This document shows, piece by piece, positions 3,282 through 10,065 of a DNA stretch of 28,179 nt. This stretch comes from a virus (Duplodnaviria; Heunggongvirae; Uroviricota; Caudoviricetes). Numbering within the stretch: the first letter of the stretch is position 1; every line of letters begins with the position of its first letter. The stretch covers positions 1 through 28,179 of the IMG/VR virus record IMGVR_UViG_2778261154_000006, one strand, 5' to 3'. The notes below the pieces were generated by a model, which was not told where the DNA came from, ran no database searches, and worked only from the letters and a program-made list of their open reading frames with translations. The translations under genes and the position numbers were made by a program.

Positions 3282-3704
3282 ATGATTAATCCGACACTCA
3301 CCCTCAAAGATAAAGCCCTTGCGGGCGCAATGTTTTTACGCAACTACGCCGCAATGATGGCTGACACTGACAACCCGATTATGGTGCTGTCAGTGGAGCC
3401 TCACCTTATCGCCGCAGACGCAATTGAACAGGTGGTACAGGAAAACACCTGTCTGAGAAATCAGCTTGCCACCCTTCAGACAGCAGCTGACCCGGCAAAG
3501 GAAAGTGCTGAACACACCTGCCACACCACATTCATCAAAGGGACCCGCGTATGTCTGAAAAACAGTCCGCAGCAACGCGGAACGGTCGTTGACACCCGCA
3601 CCAGTAGCCCCGCCATTGACCGGGTTTTCGTCCGTTTCGATTCCCCCTTCGAGGAAGACCGCCGGGTAAAGACCAGAAACCTGGAAATAACCCCCGACAA
3701 ATGA
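3282..3704 (+). CDS. hypothetical early protein
   Basis: 140-aa ORF with AAGGG SD upstream. Preceded by a 97-bp intergenic region containing the palindrome GTTAATTAAC. Confidence 0.45.
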   Translation: MINPTLTLKDKALAGAMFLRNYAAMMADTDNPIMVLSVEPHLIAADAIEQVVQENTCLRNQLATLQTAADPAKESAEHTCHTTFIKGTRVCLKNSPQQRGTVVDTRTSSPAIDRVFVRFDSPFEEDRRVKTRNLEITPDK

Positions 3705-3958
3705 AGCTGATTATCCCTGCGCGACACCGCAAAAACCGGATGAAGCCAGGGGGAAAGCCGGAGCGGGCAGCAAGGGCGGCATACCGTCGCCTGCTGAAGG
3801 GGGACCGGTCACACGTGCGACGGCTGGAGCGGGTACCGCCCGCCCGCGTCATCAACGTCATGTACCGTTACCGGCTGTTAAGTCTGGACGAAGGCCGGAC
3901 ATGGGTACTGCTTAACCATAACGAATACGTGAAGAGGATAAGACGATGTTACAGATGA
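3701..3958 (+). CDS. hypothetical small basic protein
   Basis: 85-aa ORF, start overlapping the upstream stop. Arg/Lys-rich. GC-rich region, so weak support. Confidence 0.3.
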   Translation: MKLIIPARHRKNRMKPGGKPERAARAAYRRLLKGDRSHVRRLERVPPARVINVMYRYRLLSLDEGRTWVLLNHNEYVKRIRRCYR

Positions 3959-4476: not shown

Positions 4477-4712
4477 AACCCGCCATTATCTGCATTCTGT
4501 GCGAGAGCACTGTCACCGGCGGCCATTACCGCATCAGGGAACGCCACATCAACCCTGACCGTTCGCTGCTGGACAACATCACCGGCCCGAATGATGAACG
4601 CGTGATCTGCCTGAACGACGGCTCGCAGTTACGCGTGCGCAATATCCGGCGCGAAATCACGCTCGAACCCACCCCATTCACACGCGGGAAAAAACCGGAG
4701 AGTGACGCATGA
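4473..4712 (+). CDS. hypothetical protein
   Basis: 79-aa ORF, translationally coupled between neighbours (overlapping start and stop). Confidence 0.35.
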   Translation: MKPAIICILCESTVTGGHYRIRERHINPDRSLLDNITGPNDERVICLNDGSQLRVRNIRREITLEPTPFTRGKKPESDA

Positions 4713-5668
4713 AAGGTATTCTGAACCAGCGCTCACCGCTCAAATGGGCGGGCGGCAAATTCAGTATCATGCCGCAGCTGCGCGAATATTTACCCAAAGC
4801 CGCCTGCCTGATCGAACCCTTCGTGGGCGGCGGCTCGGTCTTCATGAACACGGATTATGACTATTACGTATTGTGTGACAGCAACCCCGCGCTGATTAAT
4901 TTCTACCAGCAACTGACGACCAACACCACGGAATTAATGGATCGTGCATGGTCACTCTTTAAGGATGGCGGCACACCGGAAGCCTACAAACGCCATCGCG
5001 GAGCATTTAACACCATCGCGCTGGCCACCGACAGATTACGCGGAGAATCCCTGGAATGGGCAGCGCTGTTTCTGTACCTGAACCGCCATTGCTTTAACGG
5101 CCTGTACCGCACCAACCAAAAAGGCGAATTCAATGTGCCATTCGGCAAACACCGCATGCCTTATTTCCCCTGCCAGGAAATGCGCCTGTTTGCTGATAAA
5201 GCCAACGAGACCCGGACCCGCTTTATTCACGCGGATTTCCGTACAGCCTTCACAATGCCGGCTGAGATCCACCGTTTTTCTTCGGTGCACGGCGATATCG
5301 CCATTTACTGCGATCCGCCCTACCTGCCACCGAACGGTAAAGAGGCGTTCACTCACTACAACGGCCGGGCATTTACCCGCAAAGACCACCGTGACCTTGC
5401 GGCGCTCATGATGAACGCCTGGCAACGTTACGGTATCCACCCGGTGGTCTCCAACAGTGACACCTCCGAAACCCGGCAGATCTATTCCTCGTTTGAGCTG
5501 CACACCCTGAGCGTTCGCCGCGCTGTGGCTGCCAGCAGCAGTGCACGCCAGCAGGCAAAAGAGGTGATTGGTGTTTATCCGCCAGCCCGTGAGGTCCGGA
5601 TCCGGGATGTCAATGCGGGCTGGCTGTCTCACATTCCCGCTCCACACCCCACCACGGAGATCATGTAA
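4709..5668 (+). CDS. dam: DNA N6-adenine methyltransferase, Dam family (GATC-type)
   Basis: LKWAGGK near the N-terminus, EPFVGGGSVF SAM-binding motif, DPPY catalytic motif (YCDPPYLPP), and FLYLNRHCFNGLYRTNQKGEFNVPFG closely resembling E. coli Dam. Confidence 0.9.
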   Translation: MKGILNQRSPLKWAGGKFSIMPQLREYLPKAACLIEPFVGGGSVFMNTDYDYYVLCDSNPALINFYQQLTTNTTELMDRAWSLFKDGGTPEAYKRHRGAFNTIALATDRLRGESLEWAALFLYLNRHCFNGLYRTNQKGEFNVPFGKHRMPYFPCQEMRLFADKANETRTRFIHADFRTAFTMPAEIHRFSSVHGDIAIYCDPPYLPPNGKEAFTHYNGRAFTRKDHRDLAALMMNAWQRYGIHPVVSNSDTSETRQIYSSFELHTLSVRRAVAASSSARQQAKEVIGVYPPAREVRIRDVNAGWLSHIPAPHPTTEIM

Positions 5669-5979
5669 TGGCCATTATCTATATCGCCGGCCCCATGACG
5701 GGGAAGCCTGATTTCAACCGCACCGCCTTCACCATGACGGCGACCCGCCTGAGGATGCAGGGTCATACCGTACTCAACCCCGCAACACTCCCTGACGGGC
5801 TGAGATACAGGGACTACATGCTTATCGGGAGCGCCATGCTGCACTGTGCCGATGTGATTTACCTGCTGGATGGCTGGGAGGACTCGCCGGGGGCAAAAGA
5901 GGAACACGCCACCGCCCTGAAACTGAATCTGATCATCTCCACACCAGAAAGCCGTAAGGAGGCCAAATCATGTTTCTGA
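5668..5979 (+). CDS. DUF4406-like protein (nucleoside 2-deoxyribosyltransferase-like fold)
   Basis: 103-aa ORF whose start overlaps the dam stop (ATG within TAATG). N-terminal IIYIAGPMTG resembles the DUF4406 family (family assignment from memory, unverified). Confidence 0.5.
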   Translation: MAIIYIAGPMTGKPDFNRTAFTMTATRLRMQGHTVLNPATLPDGLRYRDYMLIGSAMLHCADVIYLLDGWEDSPGAKEEHATALKLNLIISTPESRKEAKSCF

Positions 5980-6524
5980 AACCAATGGGGGGACCAGGTA
6001 AAGCACCGAAGCACGTCAGTGCCTGGACACAACAGGAAGACGAACTGCTTATCTCGCTTTATCAGGATCACAGCACATGGCAAATGGCTGAACGACTTCA
6101 GCGAACCCGCAGCGCAGTGATGCACCGGATTCTTTTTTTACGTAATCGCGGGTTGATTGGTCGCAAGAGAAAAGCACCGCTGAGTGCAGAAGCCATCGCC
6201 TTTCTCACCAAAAACCGTCACGCAAAAACCGCACGGGAACTGGCCCGGAAGGCGGGATGCAGCGAGTGCACCGTGAGGTACACACTGCATAAACGGGGTT
6301 ACAGCCTTAAGAAATGCGGCGAGAGCCACCATTGCACCAGATACAGCGATCGTCTGGCTGAGCTGGTTACGGAGCTACGCGACAGACGCAACATGACGTT
6401 CTGCATAATCGCGAAACACATCAACATCACGATGCAAATGCACATCAGCGATGATACGGCGTTTCACCTCTACAACCGCCGGACCGCCGCCGACGCCCTG
6501 TTGTACGAACTGCTGCCGAACTGA
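5970..6524 (+). CDS. putative DNA-binding protein with two HTH-like segments
   Basis: 184-aa ORF. Segments WTQQEDELLISLYQDHSTWQMAERLQRTRSAVMHRI and AKTARELARKAGCSECTVRYTL look HTH-like. Followed by an intrinsic terminator. Confidence 0.45.
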   Translation: MFLKPMGGPGKAPKHVSAWTQQEDELLISLYQDHSTWQMAERLQRTRSAVMHRILFLRNRGLIGRKRKAPLSAEAIAFLTKNRHAKTARELARKAGCSECTVRYTLHKRGYSLKKCGESHHCTRYSDRLAELVTELRDRRNMTFCIIAKHINITMQMHISDDTAFHLYNRRTAADALLYELLPN

Positions 6525-6644
6525 GTGATCATCATGCACACACAAAAAAACCGCTTGCCATGTCGCAATCAGTCAGGTTACATTTCCGCTGCACCTCATA
6601 AAACGGGTGCCGGGATTGAGACCCCGCTGACAAACGTAGCGCAC

Positions 6645-6665
6645 AACCGCGCCAGCGGTTTTTTT
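6645..6665 (+). terminator. rho-independent terminator (6-bp GC-rich stem, GCCA loop, 7-T run)
   Basis: AACCGC-GCCA-GCGGTT followed by TTTTTTT, about 120 bp downstream of the stop at 6524. Confidence 0.55.
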
Positions 6666-6844
6666 GTGCGTACCGTATCGTCACACCTTTTTCGCATCAG
6701 AATTATGGTGGGGCGTACAGGGCCGACTTCGGTCGGGCCGGGTTCTGCGTTTGCCGGTAGTCTCAACCCTGTACGTCTCACCACCCCGAGTTTGAGACCT
6801 CTGGATGGTGAGTTTTCAAAACTTACACACGTAGAGGCCACACC

Positions 6845-7072
6845 ATGGCAAACCGCAAACAACAGCGCGCATACGCTGCGCGTCGTCACATCCGGACTGA
6901 AATCAACCGCAGACTTTTCCGCGCCTTCCGCGTCGCGCATATCATGCACATCAATATGCTGCATGAGCGCAGTCACGCACTGTCAAACACCTATTCCGCC
7001 GCTGTTTTCAGCTATCTGGCGGATGATCTGCGCGGGCTGCGGGACCTCATTAACCAGCACTACCACCACTAA
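6845..7072 (+). CDS. hypothetical small basic protein
   Basis: 75-aa ORF with GAGG 7-8 nt upstream. Lies after the structured non-coding region. Weak support. Confidence 0.3.
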   Translation: MANRKQQRAYAARRHIRTEINRRLFRAFRVAHIMHINMLHERSHALSNTYSAAVFSYLADDLRGLRDLINQHYHH

Positions 7073-7129
7073 TCAACATCCCGCATCCATACGCGGGAGG
7101 CTTCCGCACGTCCGTTTCCGGAGGTTCTC

Positions 7130-7543
7130 ATGAAGAGCGTTAAGGGACTTTCAGATATTCAGGATTTTTTTAACTGGATGTGGGCGGTGGATCCACGCCT
7201 CGCTTCCCGTCTCAATGACCTGCACGACTATTACCGCCGCGCCTGTAAACAGGCCGCCAGCAGCGCCACCACATACGGTGAGTTTTCCTTCACCGTTGAC
7301 GACCGTTACCGCGTGGACGTCAGAGACCAGAACAACAGCCTGGAGCTGGGCCTGTTCCACATCAACGGACTCGACAGCAGTGTTATCAGCTGGTCATCGT
7401 CAGAAATGGTGCTCGTTCTGGAAATGACCACCCACAGCGTGGTCGTGAAAGGGATTAAAACGGCAGAAGACTTTATCGCTGAATACCAGCGTCTTCTTGT
7501 GCTGTACCGGGCTGTATTTCAGAAGGCAACAGCAGGGGAGTAA
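7130..7543 (+). CDS. hypothetical protein immediately upstream of the replication gene (P2 B-position)
   Basis: 137-aa ORF with GGAGG SD upstream, ending 5 bp before the A gene start. Confidence 0.45.
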   Translation: MKSVKGLSDIQDFFNWMWAVDPRLASRLNDLHDYYRRACKQAASSATTYGEFSFTVDDRYRVDVRDQNNSLELGLFHINGLDSSVISWSSSEMVLVLEMTTHSVVVKGIKTAEDFIAEYQRLLVLYRAVFQKATAGE

Positions 7544-7548
7544 GCGGA

Positions 7549-10065
7549 ATGAGCCATCACAACACACACCTGGCGTACCCGTGGAATGCCCCGCTGCCGG
7601 TTATTGATCCTGAGACGTTCGGCAGAGCGTTACCGCAGAAGCCAACCGCATTACAACGGGCAATCCGGGACTACCTCACCGAAGACATTCGCACTGAGGC
7701 CCGGCTGGATGAAGAAACCGTGGTCTTCCTGACAACCACGGACAAAGGCAAACAAATTAATTCACACCTTCACCGGGACGAAGAGCGGCAGACAAGGCTG
7801 GATAAGCTGGCACGACACAGACGCGAAAATCCGCCAACGGAGGTATCGGAAGCGATAGCCGAACTTCGCGCCCTGCCACCGTTTCTTGCCAGCGTGCTGA
7901 TCCGCGATCTGGCACGCCTGAACCGGAAACAGCAAAGCGCCCGCAGCAAAGGTGTAAAAAACAATAGCGCATACGTGGCCGATAACTTCGTTCGCCGTGG
8001 ACTGCGCGCGCGCCTGAAACGTATCGAACGGGTTAACGACCGCTTTGCAACGCCGGCATTCAAATCCAGTGTCATACGCCATCGCCTTGAAGAGCTGCTC
8101 ATGCTGCCGCAACTCAGCCGCGACAAGATCCAGCGCATCGCCACACTGACTGCGCAGTTCTTTACCGCAGAATTTGAACGCATATGTGATGAAGTTCCTG
8201 AACAGACCGGAAAGAATAATGACAGCCCGGTTATCTGGCTGCTGGCCTACCAGAAGATGGCACGCATAGCCTTAACGCTGGGCGTGATCCCGCCATACTG
8301 GCCGGAACTCGAAATCAGGCACAACCGACGCACACCGCCGGACCCTGAACTGATACCGGGTGCGGTACTGCGCATCACCTGCGCGACCTGGTGGAACAAC
8401 CAGTTACGCCACATCGCCGATCTCTGGCGGGAGGAGTTACTGCGTGCCGCCGGCAGAGTGTCACGTAAACAATCCCCTTATATCAGCCATGAATCACTAC
8501 TGGAGTTTCGCGAGAAGCGCCAGCGCACCCGTGATTTTCTCAAAAGCTGGGATATTGAAAACGAAGACGGCGAGCGCCTGAGTCTGGAGGAAGTGTACTG
8601 GGCGGGCCCGGGGAATCCACGCAACCGCCGCAATGAAATGATGGTCTGCGTCAGAGGGATGGAGATGGTAGCCGAATTGCGGGGTGACGTCGCATTCTTC
8701 ATCACGGTAACAGCCCCTTCCCGCTTTCACAGCGTGAACGAAGACGGCAGCCTGAACCCGAAATACAACGGTGCCACTGTACGCGATACCAGTGATTATC
8801 TGGTTTACGACTTCTTCGCAGCCGTAAGAAAAAAAATCAAAAAAGAGGGGCTGGGCTGGTACGGCGTGCGAACCGCTGAGCCACACCATGACGGCACGCC
8901 ACACTGGCATATGCTGGTATTCACGTCCCCTGAGAACGCAGAGCACATCATCGAAATTATGCGCGACGCAGCGATTAAATCAGATCGCCACGAACTGGGG
9001 GACGATATTTCGCCGCGCTTTGAATGCGAGAAGATAGATCCGGAAAAAGGGTCGCCGGCAAGCTATATCGCAACCTATATCGGTAAGAACCTGGACGCCA
9101 GCGCCTTCCACAACAATGATCCGAAAACCGGAAAACCTTACGTCGATAAGGAATCCGGGAAAACCATGGCGGAAACCGTGGAGAACGCCATTGCATGGGC
9201 GAGCCTTCACCGCATACGTCAGTTCCAGTTTTTCGGCATTCCGCCCCGCCAGGTGTGGCGTGAACTCCGCCGCCTTGCAAGCCAGATGGGGCGCAACCCG
9301 GCATCACCGAAGCGACTCGATCATGGCGATATTGACGCCATTATGGCCGCCGCAGACGTAGGGTGTTTTGCCACCTACATCATGAAACAGGGTGGCGTGC
9401 TTATTCCACGCAACCAGTATCTGGTCCGCACCGCATACAAAACCGCAGACGAAGCTAATGACTACGGCGAATTCCCGCAGCGCATCTACGGAATTTGCGC
9501 CCCGTCACTCGGGGAACGGTACACCATCTGCACCCATCCGGATGAGTGGAAACTGGTCAGAAAAGAATCTGACGCCGACAACAGCACGGACGAGGGTTTT
9601 GACCTTCGGGGCGGCTTCGCCGCACCTTGGACTCGTGGCAATAACTGTCCCGGTGACGAAAAAACAGCCGGAACCGGCACAGAAAACAGGCAGCGTGGGT
9701 CGCGGCTGACGCTTCCGGAAAGCGGCCTGGCGCACTGGTTGCAGACGTTAACCCGTCACGAGCGGAAACAGCTCATCAGACAGCTTAAAAATCAGCCGCC
9801 CACCACGGATACCGGACAAAATAACACCAGACCAGCATCAGACACCCCTGTCAGGGTGGAGGTTGTCGTGCCTGTCGACACCACGACCATCGCACAAATC
9901 ACCCGCGAACTCGACGCGCTGGGTGTGCAGCTGCCTGACGCAGCCATTATTTCCGTGAGTAACGGTGCCCGCGTTCGCCCGGGCGACGGGCGTATCGCGT
10001 ACTGGAGCGCCACAACCCGCCGTATCGTCATCACACAGGAGTCGTCAGCGGAGGTAAGATCATGA
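7549..10065 (+). CDS. A: rolling-circle replication initiation endonuclease, P2 gpA family (HUH nuclease)
   Basis: 838-aa ORF. HUH motif in GTPHWHMLVF, and a Y-x-x-x-Y pair in SYIATYIGKNLD as in the gpA active site. Size and position match P2 A. Confidence 0.88.
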   Translation: MSHHNTHLAYPWNAPLPVIDPETFGRALPQKPTALQRAIRDYLTEDIRTEARLDEETVVFLTTTDKGKQINSHLHRDEERQTRLDKLARHRRENPPTEVSEAIAELRALPPFLASVLIRDLARLNRKQQSARSKGVKNNSAYVADNFVRRGLRARLKRIERVNDRFATPAFKSSVIRHRLEELLMLPQLSRDKIQRIATLTAQFFTAEFERICDEVPEQTGKNNDSPVIWLLAYQKMARIALTLGVIPPYWPELEIRHNRRTPPDPELIPGAVLRITCATWWNNQLRHIADLWREELLRAAGRVSRKQSPYISHESLLEFREKRQRTRDFLKSWDIENEDGERLSLEEVYWAGPGNPRNRRNEMMVCVRGMEMVAELRGDVAFFITVTAPSRFHSVNEDGSLNPKYNGATVRDTSDYLVYDFFAAVRKKIKKEGLGWYGVRTAEPHHDGTPHWHMLVFTSPENAEHIIEIMRDAAIKSDRHELGDDISPRFECEKIDPEKGSPASYIATYIGKNLDASAFHNNDPKTGKPYVDKESGKTMAETVENAIAWASLHRIRQFQFFGIPPRQVWRELRRLASQMGRNPASPKRLDHGDIDAIMAAADVGCFATYIMKQGGVLIPRNQYLVRTAYKTADEANDYGEFPQRIYGICAPSLGERYTICTHPDEWKLVRKESDADNSTDEGFDLRGGFAAPWTRGNNCPGDEKTAGTGTENRQRGSRLTLPESGLAHWLQTLTRHERKQLIRQLKNQPPTTDTGQNNTRPASDTPVRVEVVVPVDTTTIAQITRELDALGVQLPDAAIISVSNGARVRPGDGRIAYWSATTRRIVITQESSAEVRS

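Follow-up and report, generated by a model that had tools for sequence, protein, structure and literature searches.

The immunity region of the satellite phage P4 is ordered PLE - seqA - CI RNA (seqB) - seqC - epsilon - orf151 - orf106 - alpha, and immI of phages P1 and P7 is ordered a1 b1 - c4 - a2 b2 - icd - ant1/2, with the antisense RNA and its target encoded on one transcript and one strand. C4 of P1 blocks ant (PMC8198154), and RNase P is cited in PMC2190699 as the enzyme that makes the 5' end of the P1 and P7 C4 RNAs. Barquist et al. 2013 equated IsrK with P4 seqA and C4 with P4 CI RNA under the term 'IsrK-C4 immunity system', noted related systems in P1, P7 and N15, and suggested an anti-satellite role for the copies found in lambdoid phages (PMC3632133). 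Both RNAs are also annotated in an APSE study, and a 2025 review lists IsrK and c4 separately; our literature search turned up no account of the module in phages of the P88 type or in other P2-like phages. Here we examine a 320-bp island (positions 6525-6844) in the early operon of a P2-like prophage, contained in IMG/VR record IMGVR_UViG_2778261154_000006 (28,179 nt, hereafter the window), and consider it highly likely that this island belongs with the IsrK-C4 RNA immunity cassettes known from P4, P1, N15 and Gifsy-1.

In the linear plasmid-prophages N15 and phiKO2, isrK and C4 with matching boxes lie upstream of anti-repressor genes in the order cA - icd - antA/B/C, in which we take cA of N15 to be an RNA; the N15 operon is reportedly controlled by LexA. 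The Salmonella prophage Gifsy-1 provides the type member of the isrK family in the arrangement isrK - orf45 (STnc1160) - anrP, where the regulated product is again an anti-repressor. There the isrK terminator is partially read through, an RNA of ~80 nt is processed from the read-through transcript, IsrK is complementary to the downstream RNA and binds Hfq, and IsrK supplied in trans activates the downstream anti-repressor (PMC4825925).

The gene content and order of the window are those of a P2-like prophage (P88-type, Xuanwuvirus), and its closest relatives are an Escherichia coli prophage in strain FDAARGOS_943 (98.5% identity), phage P88, other Xuanwuvirus/Peduoviridae, and Citrobacter phage Shae_phiSM. 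Scanning the whole window against Rfam with curated gathering thresholds returned exactly two RNA families above threshold, isrK and C4, both inside the island and on the + strand; no tRNA or transfer-messenger RNA was detected. A sequence-only reading of the window had described the island as a structured non-coding segment with an intrinsic terminator, a UUCG-loop hairpin and interleaved inverted repeats, and had proposed a small RNA among other functions. The small-RNA proposal is borne out, with two RNAs encoded, although that reading did not recognise the island as the known IsrK-C4 (P4 seqA/CI, P1 c4) system. The features of the module are as follows, where SD denotes the Shine-Dalgarno sequence, ORF an open reading frame, and J' and L' the two specificity boxes of C4.

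6555-6584, + strand: putative sigma-70-type promoter (-35 TTGCCA 6555-6560, 18-nt spacer, -10 TACATT 6579-6584; predicted start about 6591)
6591-6665, + strand: small RNA of the IsrK type, the counterpart of P4 seqA and of the a1/b1 leader in P1; Rfam RF01394, 67.3 bits against a threshold of 50, E 1.4e-12
6591-6596/6605-6610, + strand: IsrK hairpin 1
6611-6614/6623-6626, + strand: IsrK hairpin 2, whose loop holds the target copy TTGAGAC (6616-6622)
6631-6639, + strand: IsrK linker target copy CAAACGTAG, complement of the C4 loop box L'
6645-6660, + strand: IsrK intrinsic terminator, stem AACCGC/GCGGTT, with a T-run at 6659-6665
6701-6788, + strand: C4/CI-type antisense RNA; Rfam RF01695, 81.8 bits against a threshold of 45, E 7e-15, model positions 1-87 of 87
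6706-6722/6767-6783, + strand: C4 closing stem, 17 bp
6723-6727/6732-6736, + strand: C4 UUCG hairpin, the first inner hairpin
6737-6741/6754-6758, + strand: C4 hairpin 2, with the specificity loop L' CTGCGTTTG at 6745-6753
6760-6766, + strand: C4 junction box J' GTCTCAA, single-stranded between hairpin 2 and the closing stem
After the closing stem, + strand: C4 tail ACCC
6792-6798, + strand: leader target of J', TTGAGAC, exact reverse complement of 6760-6766
6806-6812, + strand: TGGTGAG (B'), complement of 6777-6783 (B; C4 closing stem, 3' strand) and also 5' arm of the inner stem in the leader hairpin
6826-6834, + strand: leader target of L', CACACGTAG, with pairing that extends to 6836 and overlaps the SD GAGG (6834-6837) of the 75-aa ORF
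6845-7072, + strand: 75-aa ORF, ATG at 6845, the first gene after C4

Several elements reported by the sequence-only reading fall naturally into this arrangement. Its terminator at 6645-6665 is the 3' hairpin of isrK, formed by the AACCGC/GCGGTT stem and the T-run that ends at 6665, and its GGCCGAC-TTCG-GTCGGGCC hairpin (6721-6739) is present and lies inside C4. The two 7-bp repeat pairs (GTCTCAA 6760-6766/TTGAGAC 6792-6798 and CTCACCA 6777-6783/TGGTGAG 6806-6812) are likewise found where they had been placed, but their A-B-A'-B' order, taken then as compatible with a pseudoknot, represents complementarity between an antisense RNA and its target and not an intramolecular pseudoknot. Further to these elements, the present analysis identifies the promoter at 6555-6584, a third A' copy at 6616-6622, the box at 6745-6753 with targets at 6631-6639 and 6826-6836, and the identity of B as a strand of the C4 closing stem.

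We compared the module with a diverse set of 21 loci, comprising the window and 20 fetched loci from P88-like, Stx and other lambdoid, P1-like (JL22 and D6), N15, phiKO2, APSE-7 and Vibrio P2-like phages. In 20/20 fetched loci Rfam places isrK ahead of C4 on the same strand, separated by 21-58 nt (35 nt in the window), and both RNAs are already annotated in two of the relatives' records. The covariation check that the sequence-only reading had called for supports the helices strongly. In a MAFFT alignment of the 21 modules (A1), 97.6% of cells in the module structure are paired, compared with 82% after shuffling and 37-44% when one partner is slid, and 31/50 base pairs have changed on both sides, values that were reached by 0/500 shuffles. 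Double changes affect 10/17, 4/5 and 2/5 pairs of the C4 helices (closing stem, UUCG hairpin and hairpin 2, respectively), with 100% of cells paired, and covariation is also seen in hairpin 1 and the terminator of IsrK. The predicted minimum free energy of C4 is -46.6 kcal/mol (z = -5.0 against shuffles). All relatives carry an R-CC-N motif after the C4 stem, which fits processing of C4 by RNase P as known from its P1 and P7 counterparts. Upstream of isrK, the promoter at 6555-6584 is the sole promoter-like site found in a scan of 5800-7600, with none further between the module and gpA. In 21/21 loci the -10 element keeps T-12, A-11 and T-7, the -35 element has TTG, and the distance of both to isrK position 1 is constant.

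Each of the specificity boxes occurs in C4 and, as its complement, in both IsrK and the leader of the 75-aa ORF. Because the downstream leader and some IsrK linkers are 1-2 columns out of register in the diverse alignment, formal box counts were restricted to P88-like sequences that align without gaps (A4; 32 distinct sequences, mean column identity 91%), and the diverse loci were compared by an alignment-free test. In that test J' finds a 7-nt exact complement in its own IsrK in 20/21 loci and in its own leader in 21/21, and such a complement is essentially absent from loci of another box type (for the leader, almost never present). By duplex energy, J' pairs as well with a non-self as with its own partner in 0/374 comparisons for IsrK and 17/374 for the leader; the corresponding figures for L' are 38/408 and 11/408. 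L' forms 8-12 contiguous pairs with its own leader (7 in N15), and in nearly all of the 21 loci this duplex adjoins the SD or covers part of it; in the window it ends at 6836, inside the SD GAGG and 8 nt before the ATG at 6845. On the + strand of the entire window TTGAGAC occurs at 6616 and 6792 only, both within the module; a corresponding scan for targets of the loop box with G-U tolerance was too permissive to inform. Folding whole IsrK, C4 and leader RNAs against each other did not separate a signal from shuffles because long sequences permit large loops, and the short-box self versus non-self tests were used instead.

Among the P88-like sequences nearly all variation sits in the boxes, and it is compensatory. 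J' and the leader show 4/7 double-changed pairs with 100% of cells paired, L' and the leader 6/9 with 96%, J' and IsrK 4/7 with 99% (6/7 double-changed in the diverse set), and L' and IsrK 7/9 with 99%, compared with 38-47% of cells paired in slid-partner controls. We also collected 83 further loci that encode the 75-aa protein; 69 loci, with the window and its close relatives included, share a gapless register with the window. Among these, 5 J types and 13 L types combine in 23 ways, and all three copies match in 22 of them. Since the three copies change together in relatives, the C4-leader and C4-IsrK pairings are both under selection, and three-way compensatory change on a background of 91% identity indicates that selection on RNA-RNA pairing is ongoing. 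The sequences compared offer strong evidence for this selection and for recombination of the boxes as modules. The single mismatched combination occurs in L068 (224-480; IMGVR_UViG_3300029738_000139), whose IsrK boxes are TTTCCAC / CAAACGAAG and whose C4 and leader boxes are TTGAGAA / CTTTGCTCT; this is apparently a recombinant with its breakpoint between isrK and C4, a natural 'mismatched decoy'. The GTCTCAA/TTGAGAC junction box of the window recurs unchanged in the P1-like phages JL22 and D6, in APSE-7 and in the Vibrio P2-like phage, each with a different loop box, and partial cross-talk between unrelated phages that share a junction box is conceivable.

The second repeat pair behaves differently. 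A B/B' complement of 7-11 bp is present in 21/21 loci, and between distant families both of its sides change together (GCTACCGC/GCGGTAGC in P1-like phages, for instance), but it is weakly specific, with 129/374 non-self pairings equal to self; within the P88-like clade the leader site 6806-6812 is invariant whereas C4 position 6780 varies. The B strand is buried in the C4 stem. The B' segment also participates in a predicted leader hairpin in which 6799-6803 pairs with 6832-6836, sequestering the SD, above an inner stem 6806-6815/6819-6828. Nearly all of the 20 relatives are predicted to fold in a similar SD-sequestering way, and the sequence changes match (CCTCC/GGAGG type).

The 75-aa protein encoded by the gene whose SD is targeted is, judging from several sequence comparisons, probably homologous to epsilon of P4, an anti-repressor known as the 'helper derepression' protein. 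BLASTP aligns the two at 29% identity over 66 aa (E 4e-7), and a profile built from five homologues matches epsilon by hhalign with 92.7% probability (E 4e-7). Against Pfam PF25738 (Derepression) the 75-aa protein scores 25.2 bits (E 1.3e-5), under the threshold of 27, compared with 170 bits for P4 epsilon itself. RefSeq names its homologues 'derepression protein'; NCBIfam returned no match for either this or the following 137-aa protein, and a search of GTDB using the alignment of the epsilon-like proteins yielded just 3 close relatives.

By analogy with the characterised systems, the module would operate as follows. Transcription from the module promoter, or from an upstream P2-type early promoter, would partly read through the IsrK terminator, and RNase P would cut C4 from the read-through RNA as a stable species of ~77-80 nt. 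C4 would then act in trans on the leader, pair with 6792-6798 and 6826-6836, and block ribosome entry at the epsilon-like gene, and the loss of translation would lead to Rho-dependent polarity, as in P1 and P4, and so lower expression of orf137 and gene A. IsrK would serve as a target mimic that titrates C4 or, within the nascent transcript, as an upstream C4 pairing site; with most transcripts ending at its terminator, IsrK would be in excess, and the balance of IsrK to C4 would set expression of the anti-repressor-like protein and of the replication functions. Competition for C4 between IsrK and the leader's targets would explain the activation of an anti-repressor by IsrK in trans in Gifsy-1. 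The hypervariable boxes would thus define RNA 'immunity types'.

A tentative alternative, possible but less than probable in our view, overlaps this scheme and differs only in the primary step: as in P4, C4 would pair, within the nascent RNA, with seqA (the IsrK region) and seqC (the leader) and terminate transcription before gpA, so that replication, and not the epsilon-like protein, would be the primary regulated function. The P4 mechanism is summarised in PMC4825925 and PMC3632133, the gene order is that of the P4 immunity/left operon, every transcript toward gpA must traverse the module, and upstream (IsrK) and downstream targets are both conserved and co-vary with C4. The position of the L' target, which overlaps the SD in nearly all relatives, points instead to a translational step, and after the leader the + strand holds just one weak terminator-like site (7477-7491) before gpA, in a scan that is blind to Rho-dependent sites. 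The attenuator suggested by the sequence-only reading is borne out in substance: the isrK terminator must indeed be crossed to reach the replication gene, but the immediate regulated gene is the 75-aa ORF at 6845 and not A. We give very little weight to a passive terminator or insulator accompanied by decayed relics of an RNA module, or to a cis element for replication or packaging, the latter also proposed in that reading and now without support. A canonical terminator is present and the island lies just upstream of the replication gene, yet both RNAs score as full-length family members, no ori-, cos- or pac-type repeats or other features were seen in the region, and the origin of P2 lies within gene A.

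That the island encodes protein is equally improbable, whether as a 202-aa 'Ash family' ORF (GTG 6525 to 7133) or as an orf45-like peptide from the ATG at 6705, despite several points in its favour. The 202-aa ORF matches Pfam Phage_ASH (PF10554) over residues 19-111 at 31.4 bits (threshold 26), a span that coincides with the RNA region, the 6525-7133 frame is open in P88-like relatives, RefSeq and some phage records annotate such coding sequences (CDSs), and a tagged orf45 over the Gifsy-1 C4 region is translated (PMC4825925). Against this, variable columns in the RNA region number 19/19/17 by codon position in the 202-aa frame, without any third-position excess, compared with 20/21/38 for the overlapping 75-aa gene in its own frame, in keeping with the earlier view that the island holds no credible ORF. 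The variable positions cluster in the RNA boxes, where changes are compensatory, the 202-aa ORF covers the entire epsilon-like gene out of frame, and the ATG at 6705 has no preceding SD. No reading frame can be common to relatives whose IsrK-C4 spacers measure 21, 24, 25, 35, 44, 58 and 107 nt. An Ash protein was therefore rejected, since, though above the PF10554 threshold, it lacks coding-type evolution and its frame is not kept in relatives.

The sequence-only reading had named a conserved protein-coding signal in relatives as a finding that would speak against it, and the one such signal that appeared, Phage_ASH, is artefactual and comes from translating an RNA that is conserved. The threshold of PF10554 is exceeded in the window (6525-7133, + strand) and in L021 8168-8584 (- strand), L008 413-715, L012 1141-2292, L002 2554-2814 and L005 1450-2067; it matches the obsolete P4 'cI' and N15 'cA' CDSs drawn over C4/CI-type RNA, as well as a long 'Rha' CDS that in a lambdoid phage was drawn across the RNAs. 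We conclude that the Phage_ASH family is the translation of an RNA locus. The RNAs are unannotated in the records of the nearest relatives, RefSeq and P88 included, and in some of these records the RNAs are overlain by a hypothetical CDS or by a pseudogene labelled 'ash family protein'. The annotation errors flagged here thus comprise 'Ash family protein' calls, long CDSs running through the RNAs, and PF10554 itself.

Identification of the island as an IsrK-C4 cassette must be tempered by several points that weigh against it or against the mechanism outlined above. Homology to the described systems is the basis for proposing the promoter and its start site, the read-through and RNase P cleavage, the trans action and the polarity on gpA, and the epsilon assignment falls just short of the Pfam threshold. 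The complementarity of 6777-6783 to 6806-6812 fits nowhere in the IsrK-C4 model. The leader is predicted to close its own SD without C4, and C4 may consequently not act alone but hold shut a leader that is already closed; the chief regulatory event may even be activation by IsrK, as the Gifsy-1 work stresses. The mismatch in L068 (1/23 combinations) implies that matching between IsrK and C4 is not absolutely required for persistence.

P4 shares much of this layout. Rfam identifies the same pair of RNAs in P4, in the same order and on the same strand (isrK-like 8692-8615, C4-like 8507-8420), and there too the IsrK loop and linker complement both C4 boxes. The P4 order of isrK-like RNA, CI RNA, epsilon, orf151, orf106 and alpha compares with isrK, C4, epsilon-like gene, orf137 and gpA in the window, although orf137 shows no similarity to orf151. 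The spacer between IsrK and C4 is 107 nt in P4 as opposed to 35 nt in the window, and the box sequences differ. P4 is a satellite that replicates with the alpha primase-helicase, whereas the window element is a full P2-like phage of the helper type with a gpA rolling-circle endonuclease, and its cassette lies deep in the early operon, ~4.6 kb from the repressor/Cox-type switch.

In P1 and P7, as in the window, the target adjoins the SD of the first small ORF, and the regulated product is an anti-repressor, to which the epsilon-like protein corresponds. The downstream genes in P1 are icd and ant in place of the epsilon-like gene, orf137 and gpA; the P1 operon is also repressed by C1, and no operator was identified in the window. 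The P1-like phages JL22 and D6 share the layout of isrK, C4 and leader with the window and differ from it in loop box and stem sequence. In Gifsy-1 the regulated protein belongs to another family, and the orf45 stop overlaps the anrP start (AUGA) with a need for translational coupling, whereas the window frame from the AUG at 6705 in C4 runs to 7133 without such coupling. The downstream genes of N15 and phiKO2 also differ from those of the window. An exact LexA box (CTGT-N8-ACAG) is absent from the entire window, the vicinity of the module included; with one mismatch allowed, 18 sites occur in the window where 8.9 are expected, a number reached by 0/100 shuffles, and none of them is near the module.

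The kind of system is thus already known, and what is new is the helper-type host lineage, the epsilon-like target beside gpA, and the combinatorial diversity of the boxes. A broader and rather unlikely proposition is that in helper phages of the P88 group this cassette, which joins RNA immunity to an epsilon-like gene in the manner of P4 and occurs in at least 5 x 13 box types, serves as a second layer of RNA immunity, as a weapon between elements, or as both. If so, C4 would gate the phage's own anti-repressor and gpA-dependent replication, a box-matched C4 could shut off the epsilon/alpha operon carried by a P4-like satellite that enters the cell, or by a related phage, and the epsilon-like protein could derepress other P2-like prophages. 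A cassette in the actual helper lineage of the satellites would make the anti-satellite idea directly testable. The IsrK-C4 assignment itself explains an un- or misannotated 320-bp gap in common P2-like prophages of E. coli, Salmonella and Citrobacter as a functional regulatory RNA module, and links the P4 cI-epsilon cassette to its helper lineage. The 23 natural box combinations are a resource on the interaction of C4, mRNA target and IsrK mimic, on immunity types in superinfection exclusion, and on interference between helpers and satellites.

The genes that flank the module include cargo-like members of the early operon on its upstream side and the replication gene downstream.

3701-3958: ParE-family toxin-like protein, cargo-like, named in a near-identical E. 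coli locus (L001)
4709-5668: Dam-type adenine methylase, a cargo-like early-operon gene upstream of the island
5668-5979: DUF4406 protein, nucleoside 2-deoxyribosyltransferase-like, a cargo-like early-operon gene
5970-6524: Myb/HTH (helix-turn-helix) DNA-binding protein, directly before the island
7130-7543, + strand: 137-aa ORF (orf137), phrog_3237, no assigned function, in the position of P4 orf151
7549-10065, + strand: gpA replication endonuclease, Pfam Phage_GPA 351.9 bits, downstream of the module

Between the 75-aa ORF and orf137 lies a GC-rich hairpin (TCCCGC...GCGGGA, 7079-7098) that is terminator-like in our scan on the - strand only. The Vibrio phage 10N.286.54.F9_PE001 (L018 1-1167, 1366-2309) is P2-like with a 186 B-like late control gene and unrelated to the window; its isrK-C4 pair is located upstream of a YoqD/BRO-type anti-repressor, and the cassette adjoins genes labelled as the PD-T4-9 defence system. 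In the window, two neighbouring HTH repressor-type genes (RstR/DicA-like; 1014-1418 and 1445-1870, - strand) face the start of the long + strand early operon (1911 onward), and their products are candidate partners of the epsilon-like protein.

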